The notes under the pieces: model-generated | What the model was told of the DNA's origin: nothing | What the model saw: only the letters and a program-made list of their open reading frames with translations | Databases searched by the model: none | Assembly (NCBI GenBank): GCA_027331445.1 | Contig: DAHWUD010000001.1 | Coordinates: 43,157 to 107,156, forward strand | Length of the DNA: 64,000 bases | Reading direction: 5' to 3' | Source: Candidatus Amesbacteria bacterium | GTDB lineage: Bacteria; Patescibacteriota; Microgenomatia; CAZETR01; Amesbacteraceae | Position numbers and translations under genes: made by a program | Part shown: piece after piece, positions 17,402 through 49,445 of the stretch | Layout: each line of letters starts with the position of its first letter | Position numbering within the stretch: the stretch's first letter is position 1

Positions 17402-18648
17402 AACAGAAAGTCCTCCGCCTTGTCCGCCATCCGCTGTTTTCCGGCAGCGCCGTCATGATTATCGGCACCAATTTAAATAACGTCCTCAGCTACCTGTTTC
17501 ATTTGTTCATGGGTCGGATGCTGGGTCCCGCGGCTTACGGCGAAATGGCGGCCCTGTTTTCACTGATTATTTTGGTCAGTACTGTTCCTTCGTCCCTGAG
17601 CCTGGCCGTGATTAAATTTGTCTCCTCCGCCAAAAACCCGGACTCTCTCTCCCGGTTTATGAGTTTGATCCTGGTTTGGTCAGGCTTGGTAGGCGGGGTC
17701 ATCACCCTGCTACTGTTGTTGTTTTCCCGTCCCCTTTCCTCATTTTTAAATCTGAGTTCCCCCGTACCGGTTTTCATTATCTCCTGGGCCTTCGTTTTTC
17801 TGCTGCCTTCATTTGCCCTCAAATCCGCCCTCCAGGGTTTGCTTCAGTTCAATAGCTATGTTGTCAACATTTTGGCCGAGAGCGGATCCAAACTTCTGTT
17901 TGGTATTCTCTTTGTCCAGATCGGCTGGTCGGTTTCCGGTTCCATATCCGGGATTCTCGTTTCCACTTTAATTGGCCTGTTTATCGGTTATCTCTACGTC
18001 AGTAAAACCGTCCGCTTCGCCTTTCCCAAGTTTTTTCCCCTCGGCAGTTTCCTTCGCTATTCGGTCCCGGTCATGATTTACTCGCTGGCCGGGACCTCGC
18101 TTTTTACCACTGACCTGATTTTGGTCAAGCATTTCTTTTCTCCTTTTGACGCCGGGACGTATGCCGCTTTGTCCACCATGGGAAAAATTATTATCTTCGG
18201 CGCCGGCCCGGTCTCCGGGGTGATGTTTCCCCTGGTTTCCCGGCGGCACGCCTCCCATGACCATTACCGAAAAATATTTTGGTATGGCTTTGCGCTGACC
18301 GGCGCCATTTGCCTGGCGGTTTTGGCAGTTTACTTTGCTTTTCCCCGGTTTGCCGTCAGCCTTCTCTACGGTCATAAATATCTGCAGGCTGCCGGGCTGC
18401 TTTTCCCCTTTGGCATTTTTATTACTCTTTATACCCTGTCCTCTTTTTTGGTGGGTTTTTTCCTGTCCGTCAGTTATACCCGGGTGGTTTGGATCACCGT
18501 CCTGGCAGCAGTAGCCCAAATTATCGGGATTTTCCTTTTCCATTCCACTATTTTTTCAGTGATCTTTGTCTCAATCATAGTTTCACTTTTACTGTTTCTG
18601 GGGCTTCTGGCAGCATTAAAAATAAAAACTGCTAAAATCCTGGCATGA
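17398..18648 (+). CDS. polysaccharide biosynthesis protein, MOP/Wzx-like flippase
   Basis: 416 aa, about 12 predicted TM segments, no soluble domain; position within the glycan locus; ATGA coupling. Confidence 0.45.
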   Translation: MKQKVLRLVRHPLFSGSAVMIIGTNLNNVLSYLFHLFMGRMLGPAAYGEMAALFSLIILVSTVPSSLSLAVIKFVSSAKNPDSLSRFMSLILVWSGLVGGVITLLLLLFSRPLSSFLNLSSPVPVFIISWAFVFLLPSFALKSALQGLLQFNSYVVNILAESGSKLLFGILFVQIGWSVSGSISGILVSTLIGLFIGYLYVSKTVRFAFPKFFPLGSFLRYSVPVMIYSLAGTSLFTTDLILVKHFFSPFDAGTYAALSTMGKIIIFGAGPVSGVMFPLVSRRHASHDHYRKIFWYGFALTGAICLAVLAVYFAFPRFAVSLLYGHKYLQAAGLLFPFGIFITLYTLSSFLVGFFLSVSYTRVVWITVLAAVAQIIGIFLFHSTIFSVIFVSIIVSLLLFLGLLAALKIKTAKILA

Positions 18649-19454
18649 AGGTCTCCTTGCTCTCTGTAATTGTCCCTACTTACAAACAGCAAAAAACCAT
18701 CACCCGGGATCTTTGGCGAATTAAATCGGTCTTATCCAAACTGCGTTATCCCTCGGAATTAATTTGCGTTGTCGACGGCACTTCCGACGACCACACTTTT
18801 ATCAAAGCCAAGGCTTTTGCCGCCCACCGCCGGAACATCAAAGTAGTTGGCTACCCTACCAACAAAGGTAAGGGCCACGCCGTCCGCTTTGGCATGGCCC
18901 GCTCCCGGGGCAACATTGTCGCCTTTATAGATGCCGGCATGGATATCAATCCCAACGGCTTGTCCATGATTTTGGAGCATTTTGAATGGTACAGCGCCGA
19001 CATTATCGTCGGATCCAAGCGCCATCCTGTTTCCAAAGTTAATTACCCCTGGCAGCGGCGTATATTTTCTTACGGCTACCAATTACTGGTCCGGCTGCTG
19101 TTTCATCTTAAAATTCGTGACACCCAGGTGGGTCTGAAATGCTATCGTCGCGAGGTGCTGGAGAAGGTATTGCCCCGCTTAATTATCAAGACTTACGCCT
19201 TTGATATCGAAATTTTGGCCGTCGCCCATTACCTGGGCTTCACCCGTATTTACGAGGCCCCCGTGGAGGTCAAGCTGGACTTCGGCAAAAACTCCACCAT
19301 TACCAGTAAGAAACTTTGGTATTTTATTTTTCGCATGTTTCTGGATACCTTGGCCGTGTATTACCGCCTCCGGCTTCTTCACTATTATTCTCGCCGCAAT
19401 CGCCGTAAATGGATCTATGACTCAGAACTAAATTTCCGCGTTAACACCGTTTAG
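18645..19454 (+). CDS. GT2 polyprenyl-phosphate sugar synthase (DPM1/GtrB-like)
   Basis: LSVIVPTYKQQKTITRDL...VVDGTSDDHT...IDAGMDINPNGLSMILEHFEWYSADIIVGSKRH; architecture typical of Dpm1/GtrB/ArnC-type enzymes that make polyprenyl-P-monosaccharide donors for GT-C enzymes. Confidence 0.6.
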   Translation: MKVSLLSVIVPTYKQQKTITRDLWRIKSVLSKLRYPSELICVVDGTSDDHTFIKAKAFAAHRRNIKVVGYPTNKGKGHAVRFGMARSRGNIVAFIDAGMDINPNGLSMILEHFEWYSADIIVGSKRHPVSKVNYPWQRRIFSYGYQLLVRLLFHLKIRDTQVGLKCYRREVLEKVLPRLIIKTYAFDIEILAVAHYLGFTRIYEAPVEVKLDFGKNSTITSKKLWYFIFRMFLDTLAVYYRLRLLHYYSRRNRRKWIYDSELNFRVNTV

Positions 19455-19463
19455 CCCATCCGC

Positions 19464-21314
19464 ATGTATCTTGCTTACCTGATCATTTTTCTGGCGGTCT
19501 TGCTGTTTTTTATCTTCCCGGCAGGCGCCCTCCTCGGTGACTGGTTCCTGCAGACCGATTCTTCCCCCGCCATTTCCGTTTCCCTGGGCCTGCTTGTGGT
19601 TACCCTGGAAGCCTATCTTTTAGGCCTGAGCCATTTGTACCCCCTGACCTTGCCTCTAATTGTTCTACAGGCCATTATCATCTGGCGGTACTTCCATCGC
19701 CGACATCTCTTTGTCAGCCTGCTTTCTCCCCGCCGCCTGTCATTGGTGGGAGCCGGTTTTGTTCTCCTGAGCGTTTTTATAAACAGCCTCCAGTTATTCC
19801 CTTTTGGTGCCGTCACCTCTAAAGGAATTTCTCTGTACGGGGCCCACTTTGTCGATTCCACCTGGCATTTGTCGCTCATCAACAGCCTTTCCCGATCCGT
19901 TCCCCCGCCCAACCCCCTTTATTCTGGCCTTCTGGTCACCAATTACCACTATTTGGTTGATCTGCAAATAGCTCTCATTCACAATCTTACCCGCATTCCC
20001 GTTCCGGTCTTATATTTCCAAATCATCGGCCCCTTTTACCTGTTGCTGCTCTCACTTCTGATTTATCGCTTTTCCGTTTCCTTATCGGGTCGGGCGCTCA
20101 CGGGAGTAATGGCTCTCTGTTTTATTATGCTGAGCAGCAATTGGTATTATTTTGCCCGGCTGGTTTTTCCTCTCGCGTCTGTTACTCCTTCAGTTGCCTG
20201 GGTCGAATTTTTCACCACCAAAACCGTCAATTATCCCTTATTGGTTTCACTCATCCTCCTTTTTGTTGTCCTTGAGATTATTCGGACAAGGCCCAGTCTT
20301 TCCCTTGCCCAAGCTCTTGTTTTGGGCTTTTTAACGGGCAGCATTTTTGGTATTAAGTCGCATACCGCCGTAGTTTTAGTGGCTGCATTGGGTTTCGTAG
20401 CTCTGCTAAATCTTTTTAGGAAAAATTTTTACTGGCCCCTCGTTTTTGTAGTTTCACTCATCACCGTTTTTATATTTTCCCAGTTGGTAATTTCCTCTCC
20501 CGCAGGGGGACTGCAATTTAGTCCCCTGTGGTTTATCAAAGTGATGTATGAAAGCACAGACCATTTAAATTTCCCCACCTGGGAGCTTCGCCGTCAGACT
20601 TTGTTAGCTCTCGGCTCATATCTCGGAATCGTCAGATTGTATTTCCAAGGCCTGTCCTGGTTTTTGTTCTTAAACTTCGGCCCCTTGCTTTTAGGTGTTG
20701 TGGCCCTGCTTGATAAAAAATTGGACCGGAATATAAAAACAGTTTTACTGGGTCTTTTTCTATTCGGGCTGTTGGCCACCTTTTTGTTTATTTATACCGC
20801 CACTGCCATTGTCACCATCCAGTTTGTTTACCTGTCGCTAGTCGCGGCCTCAATTCTAACTGCCTATTTTCTGTCCCGATTTTCCCGTTTTGTGGCCGTT
20901 TTCGCTTTTGTCGTCATCTGGCTGTCATTGCTTCCGGGCACTGCTTCCCTTACCGCCCAATATCTTAATTGGTCAAAGTCCTACAGTGTCTCTCCGGCCT
21001 TAACCGCCGCCTTAGTGTTCTTGACCAAGCTGCCTCCGGGAACCATTCTCACCGATGACACCTTTTCCGCCGGGTCATTCGTCCCAGCCTATTCAGGGGA
21101 CACCGTATATTTGGGCGACCATCAAATTTTAACCAGCTTGGGAATCGATTACTCAGATCGGAAAAAATACCCCGTTTCCTGCATCAAACCGCCGTACTCA
21201 ATAGCTTATATCCTTGCTCGCAGCCCCGTCTTAGATTGTCAGGCCCCGATTTTTGATTTAAACGGTGTTTATATCTACTTGGCCTCAAATAGTCCCCACA
21301 GCAGGTTACCGTAA
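19464..21314 (+). CDS. large polytopic membrane protein, function unknown (possible GT-C/polymerase)
   Basis: 616 aa, hydrophobic throughout; GC content drops in its 3' half; its 3' end overlaps the convergent minus-strand MTase gene by 40 nt. Confidence 0.4.
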   Translation: MYLAYLIIFLAVLLFFIFPAGALLGDWFLQTDSSPAISVSLGLLVVTLEAYLLGLSHLYPLTLPLIVLQAIIIWRYFHRRHLFVSLLSPRRLSLVGAGFVLLSVFINSLQLFPFGAVTSKGISLYGAHFVDSTWHLSLINSLSRSVPPPNPLYSGLLVTNYHYLVDLQIALIHNLTRIPVPVLYFQIIGPFYLLLLSLLIYRFSVSLSGRALTGVMALCFIMLSSNWYYFARLVFPLASVTPSVAWVEFFTTKTVNYPLLVSLILLFVVLEIIRTRPSLSLAQALVLGFLTGSIFGIKSHTAVVLVAALGFVALLNLFRKNFYWPLVFVVSLITVFIFSQLVISSPAGGLQFSPLWFIKVMYESTDHLNFPTWELRRQTLLALGSYLGIVRLYFQGLSWFLFLNFGPLLLGVVALLDKKLDRNIKTVLLGLFLFGLLATFLFIYTATAIVTIQFVYLSLVAASILTAYFLSRFSRFVAVFAFVVIWLSLLPGTASLTAQYLNWSKSYSVSPALTAALVFLTKLPPGTILTDDTFSAGSFVPAYSGDTVYLGDHQILTSLGIDYSDRKKYPVSCIKPPYSIAYILARSPVLDCQAPIFDLNGVYIYLASNSPHSRLP

Positions 21315-22024
21315 GTTATTCCTGACTTCAGTTCCAGCCTGCACAGCCGCCCGGCAGCCATTTTGCCGGGAACCAAAAAAGAAAATAAGTTAAACGATCC
21401 GATCCTTTCTTTTACTAATCCCGCACTTTCCAAAATCTCCTCCAGGTTTTTCGGATCATACTTCGCCAGATGCTGTTCATCCTCCAACTTGGGCACGGCA
21501 CTGACCAGGTCCAACAGCCTCTCCAGTATCCGCCACGAACTTTTGTAGTTGGGCGTGATAATGCATATCCAGCCCCGGGGATTGAGCATTTTGGTGAGCT
21601 GTTTCAACATTGCTTTTGCCTCCCCGATTCTAATGTGCTCGATCACGTCCATCATGACTATCAGGTCAAACTTTTCTGCTATCCCGGCTTGCCCGATGCT
21701 TCGGATGTCTGCTTGCCTCAATGTCACATTCTTAATTTTTTTATCATTCAGTGTTTTTTTCAAAAAGGCCAATGCCTCATCATTGTAATCCACACCCACA
21801 ATTTTCGCGACGGATTTGGCAAATCTGAATTCAAAATTGCCGGAACCTGTTCCCAGGTCAAGAATCTTCATATTCGGACGAATTAATCCTTCCACTGCAA
21901 TCAGCTTGTTGTTATGCCAATTGGATTGAAAAAAATTTCCGCTTCTGATTGCCTTATACTGATAATCCGCCGGAATTCCCAACTGCTTTTCTATAATAGT
22001 CCCTTTAAGACGGCTTTTTGTCAT
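21275..22024 (-). CDS. class I SAM-dependent methyltransferase
   Basis: ILDLGTGSGNF (motif I), VGVDYNDEALAF, DLIVMMDVIEH, LNPRGWICIITPN. Confidence 0.75.
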   Translation of the reverse strand: MTKSRLKGTIIEKQLGIPADYQYKAIRSGNFFQSNWHNNKLIAVEGLIRPNMKILDLGTGSGNFEFRFAKSVAKIVGVDYNDEALAFLKKTLNDKKIKNVTLRQADIRSIGQAGIAEKFDLIVMMDVIEHIRIGEAKAMLKQLTKMLNPRGWICIITPNYKSSWRILERLLDLVSAVPKLEDEQHLAKYDPKNLEEILESAGLVKERIGSFNLFSFLVPGKMAAGRLCRLELKSGITYGNLLWGLFEAK

Positions 22025-22054
22025 ATAATACTCGCTGGATATAGATCATTATAT
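22024..22054 (+). promoter_or_regulatory. candidate divergent promoter region (TATAAT at 22024-22029) between minus-strand MTase and GT4 gene
   Basis: 31-nt AT-rich intergenic spacer TATAATACTCGCTGGATATAGATCATTATAT between divergent start codons; perfect -10 hexamer; no -35 assessed. Confidence 0.2.
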
Positions 22055-23176: not shown

Positions 23177-24291
23177 ATATGCCAGTATATATATTCATCG
23201 GCACAACGGCAGAATTTATTAAAATTTCACCGGTCATTAAAGAGCTTAGAAGGAATCATGTCCAGTTTTGCCTAATTACTTCAGGCCAGGGAAAAATAAA
23301 TTTTGAGGAATTCAGGCCGTATCTTGGCCCTATAAAAGCCGACATCTCATTCGAACACAAGGGAGAAAAATCGTCTACCTTACATTTTGCCGTCTGGGCA
23401 GTCAGGACTCTGCTCGTGAGTTTGGTGTCGCTTCGGGACGTATTCCCAAAGTCAGATCGCGGGCAAACCCTCCTCGTCGTCCACGGCGATACCGTGTCTT
23501 CCCTGTGGGGTGCGCTGATCGCCTATGTCTACAAACTAAAGTTGGTTCATATCGAATCGGGACTGCGGTCATTCAATTTTTTGGAGCCTTTCCCTGAGGA
23601 AATATGCAGATATTTGCTTTCCCGGGTTGCCCGCATTAATTTTTGCCCCAATCAATGGAGTGTTGATAATTTAAGATCACGAAAGGGTATTAAAATTGAT
23701 ACTTTCCAAAACACACTCATTGATATTCATAAGTTTGCGGTCAGCCGAAAAATTAAACCGCCGCACATTCCTTCGAAATATTTTGTCCTGGTGATTCACC
23801 GCCAGGAACATGTAATTTTTGACCGCGGGAAGACACTCAGGATTATTAAGGAAATTTTAAATGCCACACCCCGATTGCCGTGCGTCTTTATCATGCATCG
23901 TCTGACCTCGAATTTTATTGACTCGCTGGGGCTTGAAGACTCATTTTTGAAAAATAAGCGCCTTATTTTATTGCCTAGGCTCTCATATTTTGAGTTTACC
24001 TCCCTTTTGCATAACTCTCAGTTTGTCATCACGGACGGAGGCAGCAACCAGGAAGAGTGCTATTACCTGGGCAAACCCTGCCTGATACTGAGAAATAGAA
24101 CCGAGAGAATTGAGGGTCTGGGTGAAAATGCGGTCCTGGGAGGCTTCAGCACAAAATATATTAGGGACTTTATCGGCAATTATAAACAATACGTTCGTCG
24201 TCCTATTGCCGCTTCCGCATCTCCGTCCGGGATAATCGGAAATTACCTGAAGGACTCGATACGGGACACTTCCAATTATGGCCGGAATTAA
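23173..24291 (+). CDS. UDP-N-acetylglucosamine 2-epimerase-like (non-hydrolysing, WecB/MnaA family)
   Basis: LLVVHGDTVSSLWGALIAYVYKLKLVHIESGLRSFNFLEPFPEEICRYL and FVITDGGSNQEECYYLGKPCLILRNRTERIEG align with the HVEAGLRS...PFPEE and SGGIQEEAP...RDTTERPE regions of WecB. Confidence 0.7.
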   Translation: MNMPVYIFIGTTAEFIKISPVIKELRRNHVQFCLITSGQGKINFEEFRPYLGPIKADISFEHKGEKSSTLHFAVWAVRTLLVSLVSLRDVFPKSDRGQTLLVVHGDTVSSLWGALIAYVYKLKLVHIESGLRSFNFLEPFPEEICRYLLSRVARINFCPNQWSVDNLRSRKGIKIDTFQNTLIDIHKFAVSRKIKPPHIPSKYFVLVIHRQEHVIFDRGKTLRIIKEILNATPRLPCVFIMHRLTSNFIDSLGLEDSFLKNKRLILLPRLSYFEFTSLLHNSQFVITDGGSNQEECYYLGKPCLILRNRTERIEGLGENAVLGGFSTKYIRDFIGNYKQYVRRPIAASASPSGIIGNYLKDSIRDTSNYGRN

Positions 24292-25345
24292 AATCAGCAT
24301 AATTGTTGCCACTTTTAACTCCGAATCCACGCTTCCCCAAGTCCTGGCCTCAATCGATAGACAAAAATTTCCCAAAAAATCGATTGAAACGTTAGTAGTT
24401 GACGGAGGCTCTACGGATAGGACCAAACAAATAGCCAGGAAGTTTGGTGCCAGGATCATCAATAATCCGAAAACCCAGCAAAACTATGCTAAATTCCTGG
24501 GTTTTACCAGAAGTCACGGAAGATATCTTCTTTTTTTAGACTCGGACGAAATGCTCGTGGACCCGACGAGCCTCAGGCGCAAAATCGATTTTTTTTCAAA
24601 ACACCACGAAATAAAGGTCGCTATTCCCAGCGGTTATCTGACCGGTCCCAAAAACTCAATTGTTGCCAATTTTGTGAATGAATTTGGGGATCCTTTTTCC
24701 TTTTTCATCTATCGTCTCTCAAAAAGTTCCGACAGGTTTATACGGACCATGCGCGGTCGATACCCGGTCCGGCTAGAAAATGACAACTTCCTGGTAGTGG
24801 AAATCAAAAATGCTTCTCAAATTCCGATCCTTGAGCTGACGGCCGGCGGTAGCATGTTTGATTCGATTTATTTCAGGCAAAACTTCCCAACTGCAATCCG
24901 CGGCCCCGAACTGCTAAATCATGCCTTCTATCTGATCAACTCGCTGTCACCCCTGCTGGCAATTACTAAGGACGACCCGATTATTCACCACCCATCCGGC
25001 TCTCTTAAAAATTACCTGAACAAGCTTTCCTGGCGCATCAAGAACAATATCTATTTTAAGGATACTATGGGAATTTCAGGGTACTCTGGCAGGGAGGAAT
25101 ACCAAATTGGTCTGACAAACCGATTAAAAAAATTCATGTTTATTCCTTATTGCCTCACAATTCTATTTCCGGTAGTTGATTCAATCTCATTATCCGTTTC
25201 CCGTAAAGATGTGAAATATTTGCTTCATTTCCCGTTAAGTGAATATACAGCCATGTTGATCATTTTTCATTTAGTTGCGAAATCCTTCGGAATCATGCCT
25301 TCGCTCAACACTTATGGATCCAATCAGCTCATCGCAAAACCTTGA
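24278..25345 (+). CDS. GT2 family glycosyltransferase
   Basis: ISIIVATFNSESTLPQVLASIDRQKF...VVDGGSTDRT...LFLDSDE. Confidence 0.65.
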   Translation: MAGIKISIIVATFNSESTLPQVLASIDRQKFPKKSIETLVVDGGSTDRTKQIARKFGARIINNPKTQQNYAKFLGFTRSHGRYLLFLDSDEMLVDPTSLRRKIDFFSKHHEIKVAIPSGYLTGPKNSIVANFVNEFGDPFSFFIYRLSKSSDRFIRTMRGRYPVRLENDNFLVVEIKNASQIPILELTAGGSMFDSIYFRQNFPTAIRGPELLNHAFYLINSLSPLLAITKDDPIIHHPSGSLKNYLNKLSWRIKNNIYFKDTMGISGYSGREEYQIGLTNRLKKFMFIPYCLTILFPVVDSISLSVSRKDVKYLLHFPLSEYTAMLIIFHLVAKSFGIMPSLNTYGSNQLIAKP

Positions 25346-33162: not shown

Positions 33163-33167
33163 TCCTT

Positions 33168-40606: not shown

Positions 40607-41535
40607 ACGACATCATCAAGCCTAGTTTAAAACCGGCTCTAAAAAAAGGAGTTATCCCGAATTTCTTAACCCGTCTGGACAGGAATAAATCTCACCAGAG
40701 CGCTATCTGGTCGGCCAAGACTTACTCTACGGATCCCAGAACCCATGTCTTTACTACCATCCAAGAACATTTCAGCAACCGCCTTATTCATAGCTTAAAT
40801 ATTCCTAAAAACGGCGTAGTTGTCGACGTCGGTTGTTTTATTGGCGAAAAACTTTGGCAAATTGACAAAACTGAACCCTATTTAGGGGTGGGAATAGATA
40901 TCGCCATTCCGTCACTGGTTGCAGCCAAAAAGATTGACATTTATGGACACAAATTCATCGTTGCCGATATGGAAAATCTTCCCTTCAGGAATAATTCTGT
41001 TGACTTAATTATGGCTTTTGATGTTTTTGAGCATTTATCTCATCCGAAAAAAGGCTTTTCGGAAGTCGCCCGGGTGCTTAAACCCGGGGGACAGATATTG
41101 CTCCATACACCTATTAAGGACAATAAATGGTCCATGTTTTGGTGGAAACAACGACTATCCCCTCAAGCAGCTTTAAGGGATTATCAAGACGTCGGCCATA
41201 CGGCTGACAGAATATTATCCAGCAAGCAAATTCTCTCTTCACTTAGAAAAAACAACCTTCGTCCCAACAGGGAAATTTACTACAATTCCTTCTTCGTTCA
41301 TTTTTGGGATCGGGAGTTTATCAGAACTGCTGGCCAGCTCCTTACCAGACTATCTGCCACGCCAGGACCAAAAATTAATCAGGCTCGCACCCTTCATAAG
41401 GGCAACTTAGGCAAGATGAGGCGAGTATACGGCAGATATCTCATTCCCTTGCTCGAGGCTCTCTCCTTTCCTGATATGCTTTTATCCAAGTTGAAAGTCG
41501 GTAATACCTATTTCGTCCTTGCGACAAAGGATTAG
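40594..41535 (+). CDS. class I SAM-dependent methyltransferase
   Basis: ORF track 40369..41535; preferred start ATG 40594; VVDVGCFIGEKLWQ, VDLIMAFDVFEHL, LKPGGQILLHTP. Confidence 0.6.
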   Translation: MPQLNDIIKPSLKPALKKGVIPNFLTRLDRNKSHQSAIWSAKTYSTDPRTHVFTTIQEHFSNRLIHSLNIPKNGVVVDVGCFIGEKLWQIDKTEPYLGVGIDIAIPSLVAAKKIDIYGHKFIVADMENLPFRNNSVDLIMAFDVFEHLSHPKKGFSEVARVLKPGGQILLHTPIKDNKWSMFWWKQRLSPQAALRDYQDVGHTADRILSSKQILSSLRKNNLRPNREIYYNSFFVHFWDREFIRTAGQLLTRLSATPGPKINQARTLHKGNLGKMRRVYGRYLIPLLEALSFPDMLLSKLKVGNTYFVLATKD

Positions 41536-41537
41536 CA

Positions 41538-42656
41538 ATGCTGAAACTTCTTTTTTATTCACCGGTGAAACTTCAGGCTGGAGGTGGCTGCGAGCGTTGG
41601 CACTGTGACATTACCAATTCTTTAAAACATCAATTTTCCGACCAGGTGGAGATTGTGACAGCTGATTTAGGAGACAACAAGTGGACCGAAGATTATTTGC
41701 ACAAACAGCTGAGAGGCATCCCGTATACTCAGTTACATTTTTTACATTTCTTAGGTGTCCTAGTCCCGACACCGAAAACGGCATTTTTTTTGTACCGAAA
41801 ATTCTGCGAATCAGACGCAATTCATTTTATCTATGGGTTTGCTGGACAGGACATCATGGTACTTCTTTTAAAGTTGTTTACTCGTAAGCGTGTAGTTGTT
41901 GGCCATCATGCCCCCATCTTTCATTCGTCGCCATTCCACAATTTTTACATGAGCAACATTTCTTCCAGATTACTGAATTTTTTTGATGCTCATCAGACCT
42001 TGAATTCGCTGGATAAATCCTATATGGAAAAAAAATGGAAAATAAAGAATGTTCACTTTATCCCTAGCGGCATCAGAATAGAGCGTTTCTCCCCCCATGG
42101 CAGGAAGTCTCACTCCGTCCTAACTTGTCTAAGTGTGGGCAGGTATGAATTACAAAAAGGATTTGATTTCCTGTTGGAAGCCATCGATATGTTTAATCGC
42201 ACCATTCCCAACAACTCAGCCCGGTTCTATTTCGTTGGGGCTGGAACTTTAAAAACTTTGATTGCCCGGTTTGCCAGAAAAAACCCTAATATCTTTGATT
42301 TAGGTTATATCCCTTACGAAAAGATGCCCTCAATTTACGCCAAGTCGGATTTATTTATTCTTTCTTCGCGTGAAGAACCGTTCGGCCTGGTTTTGGTGGA
42401 AGCGTGGGCGTCTGGAATACCGGTATTGGCAACTCGCACTGAAGGACCAAACGACATGCTAAATCCCCGCAATGGCATTTTTATATCTGAAATTTCTGCT
42501 GATGCTATGTGTAAATCACTCATTTCTATGTATAGACTCTGGTCTTGCGGTCGGTTAAAATCGAAATTTAAGACATCCGATCTCTTAAACAGTGCCCAAA
42601 AATTCAGCATCGACTTGACTGCCCAAAGAATGCACGATCAATTATTTCAGGTATGA
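41538..42656 (+). CDS. GT4 family glycosyltransferase
   Basis: EEPFGLVLVEAWASGIPVLATRTEGPNDML. Confidence 0.65.
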   Translation: MLKLLFYSPVKLQAGGGCERWHCDITNSLKHQFSDQVEIVTADLGDNKWTEDYLHKQLRGIPYTQLHFLHFLGVLVPTPKTAFFLYRKFCESDAIHFIYGFAGQDIMVLLLKLFTRKRVVVGHHAPIFHSSPFHNFYMSNISSRLLNFFDAHQTLNSLDKSYMEKKWKIKNVHFIPSGIRIERFSPHGRKSHSVLTCLSVGRYELQKGFDFLLEAIDMFNRTIPNNSARFYFVGAGTLKTLIARFARKNPNIFDLGYIPYEKMPSIYAKSDLFILSSREEPFGLVLVEAWASGIPVLATRTEGPNDMLNPRNGIFISEISADAMCKSLISMYRLWSCGRLKSKFKTSDLLNSAQKFSIDLTAQRMHDQLFQV

Positions 42657-43444
42657 CAGCTTTTTTAATACAATTAATTTTACTGCTCACTGACGCGGAC
42701 ATCTCCATTTCAGACAGGCTCAGATACCTCTTTCTCATCCCCATTTCCTTGTTTGCCTCAGCTACGCCTTTTGGCCTAAGGCGTACCTATTCTCTTAAAG
42801 GTGCCCAATTCTATTATTTAGGCAACCATCGCAACCTCTTTTTAGATCATTTGTCGAGCCATCTTAATGTCTATAAAAAATATTATCGTAATGCTGAAAC
42901 CGTAATTGATATCGGAGCCAGCTTCGGCACTTTTCCTCTCATCGCCTCATACTTCAACCCCCAGACACACTTCTATTGTCTGGAAATGGCCAAATCCAGT
43001 TTTCAAATACTTCAAAAGAATCTCCAAAATGTCACACGAGCCTCGGCATATTGTCTTGCAGCGGGAAGTAGTAATAAACAGATTACCTATTTCTATAATC
43101 GGGATTACCCCGAGGGCTCCCTGATTAACAGTCGTGGGAAAGCCAACAATTCTGTCCAAATGACCACACTCGACAATTTTGTTAAGGTCCATAAAATTTC
43201 TCGAGTTTCACTTTTAAAAATTGATACCGAGGGTTATGAATTAAACGTCTTAAAAGGGGCACGGGAGACTTTAAATATCACCCGCTCCGTTATCGTTGAG
43301 ACGGATTTTACCCCCCCCAACCTGTCAGCAGTTTTTGATTTACTCTCTCACAGAGGTTTCGTGTTGGTGAACTTCGGAGAAGTCAATTTCAATCGTCTAA
43401 CTAACCGTATTGGGTCGTGCGACCTGGTTTTTCAGAAAGTCTAA
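42653..43444 (+). CDS. FkbM-family methyltransferase
   Basis: VIDIGASFGTFPL ... LKIDTEGYELNVLKGARETL; ATGA coupling. Confidence 0.65.
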   Translation: MTAFLIQLILLLTDADISISDRLRYLFLIPISLFASATPFGLRRTYSLKGAQFYYLGNHRNLFLDHLSSHLNVYKKYYRNAETVIDIGASFGTFPLIASYFNPQTHFYCLEMAKSSFQILQKNLQNVTRASAYCLAAGSSNKQITYFYNRDYPEGSLINSRGKANNSVQMTTLDNFVKVHKISRVSLLKIDTEGYELNVLKGARETLNITRSVIVETDFTPPNLSAVFDLLSHRGFVLVNFGEVNFNRLTNRIGSCDLVFQKV

Positions 43445-43445
43445 T

Positions 43446-44126
43446 ATGCCTGTTAATTTAAAACAACATTACGATACCAACTGGCAACGCCTGGAAGGCT
43501 ATCAGATGTCGGAAAAAATTGCCCGGGTGGGCTACGCTCTTTTGTCGCATTACCCAGGTCGTCGCTGTTTGGATGTTGGCTGCGGAGACGGAACCAACCT
43601 AGAGAAACTGAAACAGATTGGCCTGGATGCCTGGGGCTGTGACATTTCAAGCGTCGCCGTCGGTAAGACCCGCCGGAAAGGGTTTCACGCCCAAGTAGTC
43701 GATCTGAACAACGATAAACTGCCTTATAAAAGCGGACAATTTGATATTGTTTGGTTGACGGACGTAATCGAGCACGTTTTTTGGCCCGAGTCAGTTATCC
43801 GGGAGCTATCGCGGATCACAGTCCCCGGCGGTTTACTTTTTATTTCCACCCCCAATGTTTCTTGGTGGGGTAACCGGTTTCAGCTCCTTTTCGGCCATAC
43901 TCTGACTGATATCCACCCTGAACATATTCATTGGTACAACCATACTGGTCTGATTCACCTTCTCACGGCCAATAATTACGCTGTAGTAGGGGAAGTTTCT
44001 TATAAAAGGCTTATCCCGTATCCGATTACCGCGGCCCTTCCTTGGCTGGAAGCCTTAAATCCGATTGCTGCCCCAAATTCCCTTTTTAGCTTCACCTTTG
44101 CCGTATTGGCACGAAACAGGCGATAA
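43446..44126 (+). CDS. class I SAM-dependent methyltransferase
   Basis: ORF track 43410..44126; preferred start ATG 43446 just after upstream TAA; CLDVGCGDGTNL, FDIVWLTDVIEHV, VPGGLLFISTPN. Confidence 0.7.
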   Translation: MPVNLKQHYDTNWQRLEGYQMSEKIARVGYALLSHYPGRRCLDVGCGDGTNLEKLKQIGLDAWGCDISSVAVGKTRRKGFHAQVVDLNNDKLPYKSGQFDIVWLTDVIEHVFWPESVIRELSRITVPGGLLFISTPNVSWWGNRFQLLFGHTLTDIHPEHIHWYNHTGLIHLLTANNYAVVGEVSYKRLIPYPITAALPWLEALNPIAAPNSLFSFTFAVLARNRR

Positions 44127-44134
44127 TTGTCGTC

Positions 44135-45235
44135 ATGAAAGCACCAAAAGCTGTTAAATCATTGATTATCATCATCGGCATCCCGGCTCTTTTGTTTATC
44201 TTGGGCTTTTTTCTCTCCTCAGTCCAGTTTTACCGCCAGGAAATCAGTTTTTTAAGCTTAACCAAGAACCATTCCACCAACGACATTACTTCTTCTCCGG
44301 CAGGAAATCTGCTGGCTGGAAACAAAATCAGTGGGAAATTTGTCGCCTATGACGATTACCTTGGTATCGTTAGCGTCAGGTTTGATACATTCTACCGAAT
44401 TAATGACGACTGGCTTGTTTTTAGAATTAAACAGCTGGGTGATTCAAAGTGGTACTACGAAAACTACTATAAGGTTGATCAATTTCAGTCTCACGAACTT
44501 TTTCCATTCGGATTCCCCATCATTAAAAATTCGGCCGGAAAGACATATGTTTTTGAAATCGAATCGACAACAGGAACCTCTGATGATTCAGTAGCGCTGG
44601 ACAAAACCTACCCGGTGTTTATCAGTATTTACAAATACCCCAGAAAAGTGGTTTTCAGCGGTTTTGGGCCTTTGCAGAAATTCCTACCTGAAAAGTTAGC
44701 TAGCTTTAGAAACGAAAACATCGGGAGGACAATTCAAGCTAATAAAACCATTAGGTTCATCTTCAAGAAATTTTTTAACATAGTTATCAATACTCAAATC
44801 CCGGTACTAGGTTTCTTTTATTTTCTTCCACTGATTATTTATCTCTTTTGGCTAGTGATTTACCGACGACCAAAAACTAAGAAGTCTTATATGCTGGCAA
44901 TTCTTTTTTTGCTGACGTTCATCGAGATAATAATAATTGCAGAATCGATTGACTTTATAGTTTTGGAAATATTTCTCATGTGGATCTGGGCTGTTTGGTA
45001 TTACAAATTGAAGAATCTGGACATTTTTGTTCTTGCCTTTATTTTGTTAGGTCTTTGCCCTCTGTTTTTGTTGATGAATCTTAATGATATTTCCGAGAAA
45101 ATTGGTGCCTGGTCATTCCTGTTTTTTGTCATCGCTATCTTCCAACTCGCTATCGAACAAAAATTTCATCACGGAAGAAGAGTCAGCATTCTCAGTGTTT
45201 TGCGAAAAATTCCTAAAGACTTCCATGACCGCTAA
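44135..45235 (+). CDS. hypothetical membrane protein (N-terminal anchor, ~190-aa extracytoplasmic domain, C-terminal TM bundle)
   Basis: 366 aa; TM at residues ~8-30, soluble segment, then 4-5 hydrophobic segments; AT-rich like the rest of the island. Confidence 0.4.
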   Translation: MKAPKAVKSLIIIIGIPALLFILGFFLSSVQFYRQEISFLSLTKNHSTNDITSSPAGNLLAGNKISGKFVAYDDYLGIVSVRFDTFYRINDDWLVFRIKQLGDSKWYYENYYKVDQFQSHELFPFGFPIIKNSAGKTYVFEIESTTGTSDDSVALDKTYPVFISIYKYPRKVVFSGFGPLQKFLPEKLASFRNENIGRTIQANKTIRFIFKKFFNIVINTQIPVLGFFYFLPLIIYLFWLVIYRRPKTKKSYMLAILFLLTFIEIIIIAESIDFIVLEIFLMWIWAVWYYKLKNLDIFVLAFILLGLCPLFLLMNLNDISEKIGAWSFLFFVIAIFQLAIEQKFHHGRRVSILSVLRKIPKDFHDR

Positions 45236-46571
45236 CAAATTTTCTCTTCCACTAGTCTTTCTGGCCTTCATTATCATTTTGTCTCAAACCCAATTCACAC
45301 CCTGGCCGGAAATGTTGCTCTGGCCGTATCTTATTAACCATGGCTGGCTGGCCTACCGCGATATTGCCATCGCCCATTCTCCCCTTCTCCCTTACCTACT
45401 GGCCGGTTACTATAAATTTTTCGGGGAATCACTTCTGTCATTGAAAATATTTTCCTGGATTCTGGTACTTTTTTCAGCTCTGCTTACCTACTTTATCGCC
45501 AAAAAATTGTTTGGGAAAAACCCCGCCCTGGCCGCTTTCCTGCTTTTCCTGGTCTTACAGTACAGGTATGAAGGGAATGGTGTCTGGTTTGATGTCTTGC
45601 TTGCCCCGCTGTTTCTTCTCGTTTACTTTTCGCTCAAGGAAAAAAAATACGTTTGGTTCGGTTTTTTTTGGGCCCTCGCGTTTTTTGTCAAGCAAACCGC
45701 AGTCTGGCTTTTAATTCCGGTTTTATTTACATTTATTAGCCGGAAATTTCCGGTGCCGAAACTATTTACGGCTTTTTTGGGAGCTTTACCCGTTTTATTG
45801 GTCATTCTTTTTTTTCTGATCATTTCCCGGGACATTCCTTACTACTTTTTTTGGAGCATTCAATTCGGTCTGTTCATCCTGCCCCGGATGCCGCCCCAAT
45901 ATCCCAGCCTCAGTCAATTTGTCTCCGGCTCCTGGCCTTTCCTGATCGCTTTTTTTATCCCGTTGATAAAATCATCTCCCCGGAGACAAATCAGCCTGGA
46001 ACTACTCTTTTTTGGTTTTTTTTCGGCCTTCGGAGTCATCCCGCGCTGGGAGCTCTTTCATTTCCAGCCGGCTCTGCCCTTCCTCAGTTTATTGGTGGTC
46101 CAAATACTGCAGCACGCCTCCTGGGTCGGTCGCTACTCCAAATTAGCTTTGGGCATCTTCGTGACGGTATTCGCTGTCATCTTTATATTCCACACTAAAA
46201 ATATTTTATTCCGTCCAGATCGGTTTTCTGAACCCGAAGTTAGCCAGGCTGAAATCTATACATTGGCCCATACCCTGCCGGGAGACACTATATTTATCCT
46301 CAACTGGTGGGACAGTCTCTATGCTCAAACCGGCAGACTGCCGCCCAAACCCTGGGTTCCTCAACTGCCCCAATACCTGTCTCTGCCCGGCATGCAGGAA
46401 GCCCTGATCGCCGGGCTCTCTTCGCATCCTCCAAAATTAATCCTGTTTAAGCTCTATGACTCCGGGTCGTACATTCCGAAAAAACTTGATGCCTATATTT
46501 TTTCCCACTACACAGAAGTTATTTTCATTGGGAATCAGTACGAAGTTCTGGCCCCGATCCGGAATGAATAA
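45225..46571 (+). CDS. polytopic membrane protein, putative GT-C glycosyltransferase (DUF2029-like)
   Basis: ORF track 45084..46571; preferred start ATG 45225 (MTANKFSLPLVFLAF); YRDIAIAHSPLLPYLLAGYY loop motif; GC-rich codon usage resumes within this gene. Confidence 0.4.
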   Translation: MTANKFSLPLVFLAFIIILSQTQFTPWPEMLLWPYLINHGWLAYRDIAIAHSPLLPYLLAGYYKFFGESLLSLKIFSWILVLFSALLTYFIAKKLFGKNPALAAFLLFLVLQYRYEGNGVWFDVLLAPLFLLVYFSLKEKKYVWFGFFWALAFFVKQTAVWLLIPVLFTFISRKFPVPKLFTAFLGALPVLLVILFFLIISRDIPYYFFWSIQFGLFILPRMPPQYPSLSQFVSGSWPFLIAFFIPLIKSSPRRQISLELLFFGFFSAFGVIPRWELFHFQPALPFLSLLVVQILQHASWVGRYSKLALGIFVTVFAVIFIFHTKNILFRPDRFSEPEVSQAEIYTLAHTLPGDTIFILNWWDSLYAQTGRLPPKPWVPQLPQYLSLPGMQEALIAGLSSHPPKLILFKLYDSGSYIPKKLDAYIFSHYTEVIFIGNQYEVLAPIRNE

Positions 46572-47967
46572 GTTTTGGGTCGGTTTTGGAATTTTCATTG
46601 CCTTTTGTTTGCTTTATTGGTACCGCCTGCCGCAATCTCTTTACATCAATACCGATTACGGAAAGGATCTGTTCGCCATTGCCAAAATCTCCCGGGGCCA
46701 TTTCTCGCTTCTCGGCCCGGTATTGAGCGCCGGATTTTTTGCCGGGCCCTATTATTACTACCTCATGGTTCCGGCCTTGTTGCTGTCCGGATTTAACCCC
46801 TATGCCCTGGCCGCCACCAGTGTAGTTTTATTCTCGTCTTCCCTGGCTGCGGCCTTTTATTTTTTCAGCCGGAAGTTTTCCCTCGTCTCCTCCGTCCTGG
46901 CCGTCCTGGCTTTGGGAATTTCACCGCTTTTCATTATGGCTGCCCGGGAGCCGGCCAACGGCCTGACTTATTTACCTCTCCTCCTGCTTTTTATCTGTTT
47001 GGTTTATTTTCAGCCCCGGTTTTCGTTATGGTCGGTTATGGCCCTGGGTCTTTTGGCGGGTGTGATTCTTAATTTTGACCCCGTCTCGGTTTTGGCCCTT
47101 TTCCCTCTCACCCTTTATTTGATCTTCAAAATCGGTCTTAAAAAAGCCGTCATTTACGGATTTTTTGTCCTCATCACCTATCTGCCTCTGATGGCCTTTG
47201 AAGTCAAAAACAATTTTGTCATTTCCCGGGGATTTTTCCTCTACAAAAATTACCGGACGTTTTTAAATAACAATAATGTCGTCGGCGCGGTTTCCGGCAG
47301 TAAAAATTTAATCGAAAATTTCTCCCTCATTTCCTCCCGTTTGTTCCCGCTGGTCGGCCTGACCCCCCTCGTCTGGTTGTTGCTGGTTTCAGTCCCGCTC
47401 ACCATCCGCCGCTTACGCCCCGGGTCGTTCATTATTTCCCTCATTTCTTTTGTCCTAACCGTTGTCCTGGTCCGCTTCAAGCTGGAAATCCACTACCTGT
47501 TTCCGGTTTCGCTGCTGCTGCTGTTCTCGCTGCTTTATGCCGTTGCTTCCCTCAAAAAAACGGTCCTGCTTCTTGTCGTGGTCGTCCTGCTTGTCGCCGG
47601 GTTTCCCGTCAGCCGCTATCGTCCCACCACTCAGACATTTTCCCTATTTCAAAACGCCGTTGACTTTACTCTTAGCCACCGCCTCATTGACCCGCAGACG
47701 CCGTTTAACCTGATTGCCATTACGGACCCGCATGATTATGTCCCTATCGGCAATGAATACCGCTTTGCTTATTTAAAGCGGGGGTTGGCCGTTAACACCG
47801 AGTTCCAATACCCCCAGTCCCGGGTGCTGCTTTTGTTTTCCCAGATCGGGGATTTCGATATCAGCAGTCTGAATAACTGGGAAGTAGACCAGTTTGGCCG
47901 GTCGTATTTGAAAAACTATCAGGAATTTCACGCCGGCCAGGTGATCATCTACCGGGTGGAAAAGTAG
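46564..47967 (+). CDS. polytopic membrane protein, putative GT-C glycosyltransferase
   Basis: ORF track 46456..47967; preferred start ATG 46564 (ATGA overlap; MNKFWVGFGIFIAF); hydrophobic throughout with C-terminal soluble tail. Confidence 0.4.
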   Translation: MNKFWVGFGIFIAFCLLYWYRLPQSLYINTDYGKDLFAIAKISRGHFSLLGPVLSAGFFAGPYYYYLMVPALLLSGFNPYALAATSVVLFSSSLAAAFYFFSRKFSLVSSVLAVLALGISPLFIMAAREPANGLTYLPLLLLFICLVYFQPRFSLWSVMALGLLAGVILNFDPVSVLALFPLTLYLIFKIGLKKAVIYGFFVLITYLPLMAFEVKNNFVISRGFFLYKNYRTFLNNNNVVGAVSGSKNLIENFSLISSRLFPLVGLTPLVWLLLVSVPLTIRRLRPGSFIISLISFVLTVVLVRFKLEIHYLFPVSLLLLFSLLYAVASLKKTVLLLVVVVLLVAGFPVSRYRPTTQTFSLFQNAVDFTLSHRLIDPQTPFNLIAITDPHDYVPIGNEYRFAYLKRGLAVNTEFQYPQSRVLLLFSQIGDFDISSLNNWEVDQFGRSYLKNYQEFHAGQVIIYRVEK

Positions 47968-47990
47968 GGCATTTCTCATATAATGGCCTG

Positions 47991-48755
47991 GTGGCATCAC
48001 CCAACATGGACGAGGGTCTTCTAGATCGCTTTCACGCCATCGAGGAAAAACATTGGTGGTGGGCCGGCCGGCGCCGGCTAGTCGGCATGTTATTGGCCGC
48101 GGACCATCCTCAAAAAATGCTGGACATCGGTTGCGGCACCGGAGAAACCCTTACTTACCTGCATCAGCTCTACCCCCGGGCCCAACTGTATGGTATTGAC
48201 ACTTCAGATGCCGCCGTCAGGTATTCCAAAAACCGCGGCCACCGGCACATCTACAAAGCTTCTGCTCTCAAGCTGCCCTTTCCGGACAAATTTTTTGACG
48301 CCGTCCTGTTTCTGGATGTGTTAGAACACATCGCCCGGGATAAGCAGGCCCTTTTGGAATCAAAACGCGTCCTCAAGCCCGGCGGTAAAATTATTATTAC
48401 CGGTCCAGCCCTACAGTTTATTTGGTCCCGCCATGATACCCGTCAGGGTCATGTCCGCCGTTTTACCCGCCGCCAAATCCGGGCTCTGGCCCGATCGGTC
48501 GGTTTGGATGTGGTTTTTATCAGTTATTTTAATTTCATTTTTAGCCCCGTCATTATTTCCGTCCGTCTGCTGTCCAAACTGCCGTTTCTGGCCAAATTAT
48601 CCGATTACGACAACGGCATCAATTTTGACATCGCCGATTACGGCCTGGTTAATTCGCTTTTAACCAAGCTCTTCGTCACCGAGATTAACCAGCTGAAATA
48701 TCTGCATTATCCCTGGGGTATTTCCCTGGGCGCGAGTCTAAAAAAACTGCGCTAG
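47991..48755 (+). CDS. class I SAM-dependent methyltransferase
   Basis: [40 protein letters not shown]; alternative start at 48006. Confidence 0.7.
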
Positions 48756-49445
48756 GTTGTACTTCAAAATGCACCACACGGCCCACACCCCATCTTTCCA
48801 GTCAATCTTTTTTCCTTCGCCGTAGCTTCTCCCTGAATAACTGATTCCTACTTCATAAATCCGGCATTTCATAGCCGCAACTTTGGCTGTAAACTCTGGC
48901 TCGAACCCGAATCTATTTTCCTCGATGACTAATTTTTTGGCTACATCCCTGGTAAACGCTTTATACCCGGTTTCCATGTCAGTCAGGTTTAAGTTGGTAA
49001 GGATGTTAGATAGAACTGTCAGCCAGCCGTTACCCACACTATGCCAGAAATAATGCACCCGGTGCGGCATCTGGCTCACAAATCTCGATCCGTAAACCAC
49101 GTCCGCCTGCCCCGCCGCTATCGGCTTTATCAATAGGGGATATTCCTGTGGGTCATACTCCAGATCCGCGTCCTGGATGATCACCACCTCCCCGGAAACT
49201 TTTTTTAGCCCGGCCCGGATGGCTGCTCCCTTGCCGGTATTTTTTTCCGTTTTTATCCCCACTACTTCCCGGCCGGTATTTTTTTTAATTTCCCTCCAGG
49301 TGCCGTCCATGGACCCGTCGTCTACCGCAATTATTTCCTTTTTTACCCCCGGAATTTTAACCGCCCGTACCCGCCTGATGGCCGTACCGATCGTCCGCTC
49401 CTCATTGTACGCGGGTATGATTATGGACAACTTCTTTATTCGCAT
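48738..49445 (-). CDS. GT2 polyprenol-monophosphate sugar synthase (Dpm1/Ppm1-like)
   Basis: 235 aa; [21 protein letters not shown]...[13 protein letters not shown]...[10 protein letters not shown]...[20 protein letters not shown]...ADVVYGSRF - the compact DPM synthase architecture; only minus-strand gene in this region. Confidence 0.7.

Follow-up and report, generated by a model that had tools for sequence, protein, structure and literature searches.

The window considered here is a 64-kb stretch of contig DAHWUD010000001.1 from a Candidatus Amesbacteria bacterium, analysed as a whole, and the proteins of interest within it are two members of glycosyltransferase family 2 (GT2), of 269 and 235 amino acids, encoded at 18645-19454 on the plus strand and at 48738-49445 on the minus strand. 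Together they add two new, uncharacterised members to an established class of enzymes, the polyprenyl-phosphate glycosyltransferases that include dolichyl-phosphate mannose (DPM) synthase, GtrB and ArnC, and they lie in a known type of system, in which such enzymes are partnered by GT-C-type membrane glycosyltransferases. This Microgenomates bacterium, a representative of the candidate phyla radiation (CPR), has a very large locus for cell-surface glycans, to which the window belongs.

A total of 57 main open reading frames (ORFs), 51 of them on the plus strand, tile essentially the whole window, nearly all of which is coding; no tRNA genes were identified in it. All 57 were scanned against Pfam. 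Direct support was obtained for 10 GT-C-type membrane proteins and a further three candidates (5170, 46456 and 16268, single numbers denoting the lower coordinate of a gene) were added on indirect evidence, giving approximately 13 in all. Several PMT_2 scores were just below the gathering cut-off, and the ORFs concerned were grouped as PMT_2 because of their paralogy. The cytoplasmic transferases comprise eight GT4 and, besides the DPM1-like pair, six GT2 proteins (eight GT2 in total). The window also holds nine S-adenosylmethionine (SAM)-dependent methyltransferases, nucleotide-sugar enzymes, two Polysacc_synt proteins of the Wzx/MOP type and one Wzy_C protein, the last three agreeing with the two Wzx-like flippases and the Wzy/WaaL-like protein of a preliminary description of this DNA. 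The genes on which the argument depends are as follows.

1285-3543, plus strand: YfhO-like GT-C (Pfam)
3518, 6398, 9659, 11251 and 12842, plus strand: PMT_2-like GT-C paralogues (Pfam; 28-36% identity over ~500 residues)
5170-6417, plus strand: probable GT-C (hhalign against the paralogue profile, 89% probability)
8029, plus strand: PTPS_related/PMT_2 membrane protein (Pfam)
14464-16271, plus strand: soluble GT2 of 258 residues and GT4 of 352 residues (the latter at 15213), the cytoplasmic transferases of a conserved cassette (Pfam)
16268-17401, plus strand: PIG-V-like GT-C, polytopic, 377 residues (assigned through orthologues; no Pfam match of its own)
17398-18648, plus strand: MOP/Wzx-type flippase, directly upstream of the 269-residue GT2 (Pfam Polysacc_synt, E 5e-16)
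18645-19454, plus strand: GT2 of 269 residues (PF00535, E 6e-21, profile positions 1-167 of 168)
45084-46571, plus strand: PMT_2 GT-C (Pfam PMT_2, E 7.5e-11)
46456-47967, plus strand: probable GT-C (hhalign against the paralogue profile, 70% probability)
48738-49445, minus strand: minimal GT2 of 235 residues (PF00535, E 1.4e-31, profile positions 1-167 of 168)
50738-51997, plus strand: second MOP/Wzx-type flippase (Pfam Polysacc_synt, E 7e-19; weak NCBIfam matches to TuaB and MOP flippase)
56141-57532, plus strand: PMT_2 GT-C (Pfam, E 9e-7; hhalign against the paralogue profile, 98% probability)
60841-62190, plus strand: Wzy_C (O-antigen polymerase/ligase-like) membrane protein (Pfam, E 3e-12)
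62187-63626, plus strand: PMT_2/PMT GT-C (Pfam PMT_2, E 1e-11; PMT, E 1.6e-8)

A 4-nt overlap joins the stop of the upstream Wzx gene to the start of the 269-residue GT2 gene. The second Wzx gene is one gene away from the 235-residue GT2 and divergently transcribed, and the GT-C pair at 45084-47967 lies 0.8-3.7 kb from the same GT2. The two Wzx proteins yielded no BLASTP match to each other at E<=1e-3. Between 1285 and 14464 five tandem PMT_2-type paralogues are interleaved with 5170 and 8029, the YfhO-like gene coming first, an array that is unusually dense for a genome of probably ~1 Mb.

Clade, fold and active site of the two GT2 proteins

Only the 269- and 235-residue proteins could be assigned to the polyprenyl-phosphate glycosyltransferase clade among the GT2s of the window. 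Both match PF00535 over its full length, whereas the matches of the other six end at approximately profile position 105-132. They share 28% identity over 212 residues (E 5e-18), each being the only full-length paralogue of the other in the window, and their similarity to the remaining six is limited to the N-terminal ~100 residues. The best sequence match of both in the PDB, determined using phmmer, was the DPM synthase of Pyrococcus furiosus (PfDPMS, 5mlz), with E values of 1.6e-13 for the 269-residue and 1.1e-20 for the 235-residue protein; the alignments span residues 6-206 and 4-212 respectively, that is, they extend through the acceptor half. GtrB and ArnC followed, with ArnC second for the 235-residue protein (E 1e-16).

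AlphaFold2 models were built from 28 homologues of the 269-residue and 32 of the 235-residue protein, with a mean predicted local distance difference test (pLDDT) score of 71.6 and 80.6 respectively. Foldseek searches of the PDB returned only ArnC, DPM synthases and GtrB among the top 21 matches of the first model and the top 25 of the second, with E values for the top hits of 4e-12 to 1e-9 and 9e-18 to 1e-11 and TM-scores, normalised to query length, of ~0.55-0.64 and 0.61-0.80. The five best NCBIfam models of the 235-residue protein are all lipid-phosphate sugar synthases, namely AglJ (TIGR04182; 121 bits against a cut-off of 325), ArnC (NF007986; 77 against 529), PpgS (NF058614; 76 against 370), PgfS (NF047588; 64 against 500) and the haloarchaeal DolP-hexose transferase (NF041391; 63 against 375). 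Against the same cut-offs the 269-residue protein scored 34, 40, 45, 41 and 21 bits. Its matches to PpgS, PgfS, ArnC and AglJ reach the acceptor half, whereas those to glucosyl-3-phosphoglycerate synthase (GpgS) and PgaC cover only the N-terminal, nucleotide-binding half. Since no equivalog cut-off was reached, neither a mannose ('Dpm1') nor a glucose ('GtrB') label can be claimed. The clade covers enzymes for mannose, glucose, 4-deoxy-4-formamido-arabinose (Ara4FN), N-acetylgalactosamine and glucuronic acid, e.g. AepG (PMC9943897), and the sugar can therefore not be inferred from the family.

The roles of individual residues were mapped from PfDPMS (PMC5526996). In the 235-residue protein E15 (PfDPMS E12), the motif D92-A-D94-L-E96-Y97 (D89, D91 and Q93), R121 of the sequence G-S-R121-F (R117), F179 (F177) and the acceptor loop R206-S-Y-G-E210-G-K212 (R202, E206 and K208) are invariant in the 32 homologues, which are 61-69% identical. 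In the 269-residue protein D96 (D89), K125-R126 (at R117), R138 (R131) and S142 (S135) are invariant in the 28 homologues; R131 and S135 of PfDPMS bind dolichyl phosphate (PMC5526996). The metal-binding motif of this protein reads D96-A-G98-M-D100, and its family carries an invariant D-x-G-x-D in place of DAD, which, judged from sequence, makes it an atypical member of the clade. K178 and H94 of PfDPMS contact mannose (PMC5526996) and are replaced by E/D and by Y/I-L in the window proteins (by E and Y in the 235-residue protein); mannose specificity is thus not supported. The 235-residue protein had been described as a minimal Dpm1/Ppm1-like enzyme, which is borne out as regards clade but not, given the sub-cut-off scores and these two replacements, as regards mannose.

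No transmembrane helix was found in either protein, the maximum Kyte-Doolittle mean over 19 residues being 1.33 for the 269-residue and 0.74 for the 235-residue protein, and the peak of 1.33 does not lie at the C-terminus. Helices were predicted, with low to moderate pLDDT, at residues 135-153 and 222-244 of the former and at 133-150 and 216-231 of the latter. The C-terminal helix of the 269-residue protein (residues 222-244, KKLWYFIFRMFLDTLAVYYRLRL) is conserved, charged, amphipathic and aromatic-rich, and a conserved basic tail comes after it. This protein had previously been called GtrB/DPM1-like with a membrane tail; the clade stands, but the tail does not span the membrane; it is at most an amphipathic helix, most plausibly lying at the interface. 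Not every member of the clade has transmembrane helices: catalytic subunits such as human DPM1 and the catalytic domain of Ppm1 lack them, and both window proteins resemble subunits of this kind more closely than they resemble GtrB.

A further GT2, at 24278-25345, was considered as a third lipid-sugar synthase, having two C-terminal transmembrane helices in a GtrB-like topology, but was rejected; its best PDB matches are of the TarS type and the similarity to them ends at approximately residue 117.

Conserved neighbourhood and the search for a priming transferase

The family of the 269-residue protein was found in 208 stretches of species-representative genomes, of which the best 80 loci were used, with up to 10 kb on each side. 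All 80 are of Microgenomates/Patescibacteria type, and the family is present at 60-81% identity across Daviesbacteria, Amesbacteria, Woesebacteria, Gottesmanbacteria and Levyibacteriota. Homologues of the genes upstream of it in the window recurred as follows.

Wzx (17398): 69 of 80 loci within 10 kb, always on the same strand as the 269-residue orthologue
PIG-V-like GT-C (16268): 53 of 80 loci, always upstream and on the same strand
GT2 (14464): 66 of 80 loci
GT4 (15213): 76 of 80 loci
PMT_2 (12842): 47 of 80 loci

The order and strand of the five-gene cassette GT2 (258 residues)-GT4-PIG-V-like GT-C-Wzx-GT2 (269 residues), which occupies 14464-19454 of the window, are conserved across Microgenomates lineages, and a PMT_2 gene often precedes it. 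The family of 16268 has an invariant motif, N60-x-D62-G63. Of 25 proteins, comprising 16268 and 24 syntenic orthologues, 14 matched PF04188 PIG-V (best E 1.7e-12), seven PMT_2, one GT87 and one ALG10, all of which are GT-C families dependent upon lipid-phosphate sugars. The preliminary description had the DPM1-like pair supply a GT-C array; the pair sits among approximately 13 GT-C-like genes, and its association with GT-C and flippase genes recurs in other genomes.

An orthologue of the 235-residue type (E 1e-63 to 1e-73) was present in the same locus as the 269-residue gene in 10 of the 80 loci, lying ~1-2 kb upstream of it where the flanks were complete. The family of the 235-residue protein is broader, with more than 8000 relatives at ~60-70% identity, some of them outside the CPR, and examples of its homologues in unrelated bacteria adjoin PMT_2 genes. 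Near such relatives in metagenome loci, each 5 kb or longer, a sequence-based census caught GT-C genes in only 3 of 47, the yield being low because GT-C proteins are too divergent for single-sequence phmmer; candidates were instead filtered by topology and then scanned with Pfam. A polytopic ORF of 450-875 residues was then found less than 100 bp from the relative in 13 of the 47 loci. Ten of these ORFs were tested against Pfam, where four matched PMT, PMT_2 or Alg9-like families (one of them with an additional marginal match to AzlD, E 0.007, below the cut-off) and six had no match.

In three Amesbacteria loci from ENA groundwater contigs (L012-L014) the cassette is broken up by two AAA_14/DUF4143 ATPase genes that flank the PIG-V-like gene, at the place held in the window by Wzx. 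Dozens of third-party annotation (TPA) metagenome-assembled genomes titled 'uncultured Gammaproteobacteria bacterium' (e.g. L017, L020, L021 and L024-L027) carry the 269-residue gene, which is Microgenomates-specific, at 65-73% identity and are probably taxonomically mislabelled.

The absence of a priming transferase of the WbaP, PglC or WecA type, reported in the preliminary description, was confirmed for the 64-kb window, which is part of a contig of 168,596 bp. None of the 57 main ORFs matched PF02397, PF00953 or PF13727 at E<=0.01, and the ORFs without a Pfam match show no primer features. Unfiltered phmmer searches with WecA and WcaJ, translated from E. coli wecA and wcaJ, against 733 six-frame stop-to-stop segments of at least 40 residues from the window gave a best E value of 0.16. 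The queries themselves performed well in a positive control, where an unrelated locus from a metagenome gave a priming transferase at E 9e-54, and the search therefore works across phyla. No WecA or WcaJ homologue was found within 10 kb in any of the 80 related loci, even at E<=1. The ORF at 60201-60854, a conceivable small primer of the PglC kind, was dismissed, having no Pfam or NCBIfam match; read from its sequence, a plausible start at M46 gives a bitopic protein of ~172 residues with a Pro-rich external domain.

A glycan locus without a primer is a common situation. In E. coli, for example, wecA adjoins rho, wzzE and wecB in the enterobacterial common antigen locus rather than standing in the O-antigen cluster, and a missing primer is for this reason not by itself evidence of unusual initiation. 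By analogy, the primer of a cytoplasmic branch most probably has its gene in another part of the genome, or else the acceptor is built on a membrane lipid.

A proposed route for lipid-linked sugars and its alternatives

The observed family and fold, conserved residues, conserved neighbourhood and lack of a primer in the window form the basis from which we infer a lipid-phosphate acceptor, the roles of flippase and GT-C proteins and the place of any primer. The reading preferred, to which we assign a probability of approximately 0.7, is that the two GT2s are polyprenyl-phosphate glycosyltransferases feeding the GT-C array, in a three-component system of extracytoplasmic glycosylation that has been multiplied. 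As proteins without transmembrane helices they would act as peripheral or monotopic polyprenyl-monophosphate glycosyltransferases at the cytoplasmic face, each loading polyprenyl phosphate with a single sugar taken from a nucleotide sugar, the two enzymes probably using different sugars. No ORF of the window matched the GtrA-type family PF04138 in Pfam, nor do the main ORFs leave a gap for a gene of ~120 residues; for this reason, and as a MOP/Wzx-type protein is encoded beside each synthase, flipping of the lipid-linked monosaccharide is most plausibly assigned to the latter. The role has precedent, a MATE-family flippase having been described in a three-component system of Citrobacter (PMC11127046), and the Wzx at 17398 is a candidate flippase for a lipid-linked sugar or a lipid-linked glycan. 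The ~13 GT-C transferases of the PMT_2, YfhO and PIG-V-like kinds would then add sugars from the flipped donors to an extracellular glycan, glycolipid or protein. No phosphoglycosyltransferase would be needed in this branch, because its GT2s charge the carrier directly. A parallel cytoplasmic branch of eight GT4s, six GT2s, nine methyltransferases, Wzx and Wzy_C would build the acceptor glycan or glycolipid. The earlier view of a pathway dominated by extracytoplasmic single-sugar additions was an overreach, since 14 cytoplasmic glycosyltransferases, nine methyltransferases, two Wzx and a Wzy_C protein are also present.

Several results weigh against this reading. Neither GT2 reaches any NCBIfam equivalog cut-off, and in both Foldseek lists glucosyl-3-phosphoglycerate synthases come close behind the lipid-phosphate enzymes (E 1e-11 to 1e-9), the margin being modest for the 269-residue model, which is itself only moderately confident (pLDDT 71.6, TM-scores ~0.6). 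In the 235-residue protein R131 and S135 of PfDPMS have no counterpart in the alignment, W134 and G138 aligning with them and R129, H135 and S136 lying nearby; the phosphate-binding residues, the set of R117, R131 and S135, are hard to identify in GtrB too (PMC5526996). In the 269-residue family an invariant Gly replaces a metal-binding Asp of the DXD motif and an Asp occupies the position of Q93, a sequence pattern that may represent a shifted metal site. The acceptor-loop network of E12 and R202 is also missing from this protein, which has Q15 for E12 and a loop, D-F-G-x-x-S-T-x-T-S, with no arginine; in PfDPMS the residues affected by these three changes belong to one interaction network (PMC5526996). 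In one Daviesbacteria locus (L009) GT4 and GT2 genes come after the orthologue, and the 8 kb on either side contain no GT-C. Within the window, the gene directly after the 269-residue GT2, at 19464, could not be shown to encode a GT-C, and the flippases were assigned from gene adjacency alone. Finally, a census by single-sequence phmmer under-detects divergent GT-C proteins and could in principle miss a very divergent primer.

ALTERNATIVES
Two alternatives bear upon what the lipid-linked sugar is for. In archaeal-style initiation, one or both DPM1-like GT2s would, like Haloferax AglJ, place the first sugar on polyprenyl monophosphate, whereupon GT4 and GT2 enzymes would extend it, the adjacent Wzx would flip it and a GT-C would transfer it, again with no phosphoglycosyltransferase; the Haloferax pathway joins AglJ, AglD, AglR, AglS and AglP on dolichol monophosphate (PMC3871713). 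AglJ is the best NCBIfam match of the 235-residue protein, and in 80 genomes the cassette invariably includes cytoplasmic transferases and has no primer within 10 kb of it. The AglJ score is, however, far under its cut-off (121 against 325 bits), no STT3/AglB-type oligosaccharyltransferase was found in the window by Pfam, GT-Cs of the PMT_2, PIG-V and YfhO types are established as monosaccharide transferases, and the primer may simply be encoded elsewhere; we also know of no demonstration that oligosaccharides are assembled on a monophosphate carrier in Bacteria. Such a route is thus considered unlikely. A wider form, in which the cassette is a lineage-wide, primer-free Microgenomates system whose DPM1-like enzyme starts assembly on polyprenyl monophosphate or on a membrane glycolipid, is doubtful, and if true would represent a bacterial surface-glycan pathway without a pyrophosphate-linked primer. 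On a membrane glycolipid, extension by GT-Cs outside the cell could by analogy resemble that of glycosylphosphatidylinositol (GPI), or that of phosphatidylinositol mannosides (PIM) and lipomannan (PMC3485146).

It could also be that one or both proteins, more probably the 269-residue one, are ordinary GT2s that act on a non-lipid or already glycosylated acceptor, such as a lipid-linked oligosaccharide under elongation or, as for GpgS, a small metabolite carrying phosphate, and make no donors for GT-C proteins. The loss of the canonical DAD and of the acceptor-loop arginine in the 269-residue family would fit this, as would its weak and mixed NCBIfam matches (GpgS 5e-12, PpgS 8e-12, PgaC 9e-12), the position of GpgS, WrtF and RmlT close behind in its Foldseek list and the Daviesbacteria orthologue that heads a GT4/GT2 operon with no adjacent GT-C. 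The GpgS and PgaC matches are nonetheless confined to the nucleotide-binding half, the acceptor half aligning with PpgS, PgfS, ArnC and AglJ; R138 and S142, counterparts of the residues that bind the phosphate of dolichyl phosphate in PfDPMS, are invariant; the top 21 structural matches are all lipid-phosphate enzymes; and synteny with Wzx and the PIG-V-like GT-C is strong. These data make an ordinary GT2 improbable. The preliminary description would also have been overturned had the pair proved to be processive synthases of the cellulose, chitin, hyaluronan or PgaC type. Their N-termini do bear a weak resemblance to the models of PgaC and NodC. That similarity ends at approximately residue 110, neither a transmembrane channel nor a QxxRW motif is present and the proteins are 235 and 269 residues long, so that processive synthesis is effectively refuted.

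Known systems resemble the window at several points. DPM synthases, represented by 5mlz, human DPM1 and actinobacterial Ppm1, feed PMT, PIG-V, PimE and Mpt transferases and include the best PDB sequence match of both proteins. The DXD motif, R117, F177 and acceptor loop of PfDPMS are kept in the 235-residue protein and R131 and S135 in the 269-residue protein, and the PMT_2 and PIG-V-like partners in the window resemble users of dolichyl-phosphate mannose; the GT-Cs of mycobacterial lipomannan and lipoarabinomannan require polyprenyl-phosphate mannose (PMC3485146). The differences are an identity of only ~21-26%, the non-conservation of K178 and H94 and the lack of any DPM2/DPM3- or Ppm2-like partner identified in the window. 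ArnC, the undecaprenyl-phosphate Ara4FN transferase whose partner is the GT-C ArnT, gave the top Foldseek matches of both models (9asc and 8vxh), and the sequence match of the 235-residue protein to it (E 1e-16) runs through the acceptor loop; ArnC nevertheless has C-terminal transmembrane helices, the window scores of 77 and 40 compare with a cut-off of 529 bits, and there are no arn-type sugar-modifying genes. The GtrA/GtrB/Gtr* systems of O-antigen glucosylation in Shigella and Salmonella phages share the scheme of a GT2 that charges polyprenyl phosphate, a flippase and an external GT-C, and the GtrB structures 5ekp and 9nyc are among the top matches of both proteins. GtrB differs in having two C-terminal transmembrane helices and a DADLQD motif, as opposed to no such helix in the window GT2s and D-x-G-x-D in the 269-residue family, and the Gtr system has one GT-C and GtrA where the window has ~13 GT-Cs and no PF04138.

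The glycosylation of lipoteichoic acid in Firmicutes by CsbB/GtcA/YfhO (PMC5836110, PMC7389260) and the mycobacterial PpgS-Rv3632-Rv3630 system likewise proceed from a GT2 through a C55-phosphate-linked sugar to an enzyme of the YfhO or GT-C type acting outside. The window has a YfhO-like gene at 1285, and PpgS is one of the better NCBIfam matches of both window GT2s. Both systems differ in employing a small GtrA-family protein rather than a MOP flippase, and the window scores are far under the equivalog cut-offs. The Citrobacter system (PMC11127046) differs in that its synthase is of the phosphoribosyl type and not a GT2. The Agl pathway of Haloferax volcanii (PMC3871713) resembles the window in having two DPM1-like GT2s (AglJ and AglD), a Wzx-like flippase-type protein (AglR), a methyltransferase (AglP), an external transferase dependent upon dolichyl-phosphate mannose (AglS) and no phosphoglycosyltransferase; it differs in being archaeal, in AglB/STT3, which is not in the window, and in the AglJ score, which is under the cut-off.

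As the scheme is of textbook type and a missing primer is common, the annotation is refined and nothing is overturned. What is worth recording is the lineage-wide cassette and the D-x-G-x-D variant, whose altered metal motif makes the 269-residue family a useful natural variant for studying catalysis in the DPM synthase/GtrB/ArnC class. Literature searches on these loci found no prior description of them in CPR/Patescibacteria. CPR genomes are of ~1 Mb (one complete relative has 0.76 Mb), yet at least 64 kb is devoted here to surface glycans, with ~13 GT-Cs, and two putative dedicated lipid-sugar synthases would offer a testable entry into the surface chemistry of uncultured, probably epibiotic organisms.

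Other features of the locus

The gene at 19464-21314, 10 nt downstream of the 269-residue GT2, encodes a protein of 616 residues with ~14-17 hydrophobic segments and has a homologue in 4 of the 80 related loci. It has no Pfam or NCBIfam match and no detectable relation to the GT-Cs of the window. Five polytopic proteins (71, 19464, 26257, 35137 and 44135) could not be classed as GT-Cs or otherwise, their hhalign probabilities against the PMT_2 paralogues, the YfhO-like protein at 1285 and each other being below 5%. Between the 235-residue GT2 and the second Wzx, 49476-50753 encodes a flavin amine-oxidase-like/NAD_binding_8 protein (PF01593, E 7e-29). Having no GLF domain match in Pfam it is not a canonical UDP-galactopyranose mutase, and it could be a sugar-modifying oxidoreductase.

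The G+C content is 0.40-0.47 between 22000 and 46000 and 0.48-0.57 in the flanks (1-20000 and 46000-64000), and an excess of T over A that is strong in the flanks is almost gone in this central block of ~24 kb. The block contains GT4s, methyltransferases, nucleotide-sugar genes and a pair of paralogues of 736 and 724 residues, and both DPM1-like GT2s sit outside it, in the flanks of higher G+C content. Its appearance is that of a glycan island, variable or gained by horizontal transfer, between conserved flanks. The paralogous pair (26257-28467 and 35137-37311; 33.5% identity over 713 residues) are membrane proteins in which ~10 N-terminal transmembrane helices and one at the C-terminus enclose a large middle domain; they belong to no Pfam family, and NCBIfam gave only a weak match (E 5e-6) to the trehalose-lipid delivery protein MmpA. 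At 31363-33827 an operon on the minus strand encodes two nucleotidyltransferases, paralogues with 39.6% identity, together with a HAD phosphatase and a small cupin; its probable products are one or two unusual nucleotide sugars, potential donors for the GT2s.

Two soluble proteins, at 30606-31373 and 33878-35125, have no Pfam or NCBIfam match. By eye, the N-terminus of the former (HRG..E..EAF...E.D) resembles that of glycerophosphodiester phosphodiesterases, and the latter appears to hold a GT-A-like 'FGIISNG...ILICG' stretch. A 15-kb Logan contig (SRR13170411) carrying window proteins lies inside the window, and an exact search with 62 nt of DNA gave no match in the species-representative genomes. 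The nine SAM methyltransferase genes, two of them of the FkbM type, are scattered over 21275-22024 (minus), 25358-26197 (minus), 38140-39533, 40369-41535, 42653-44126, 47991-48755 and 53485-54411, which suggests that the sugars are heavily O-methylated.

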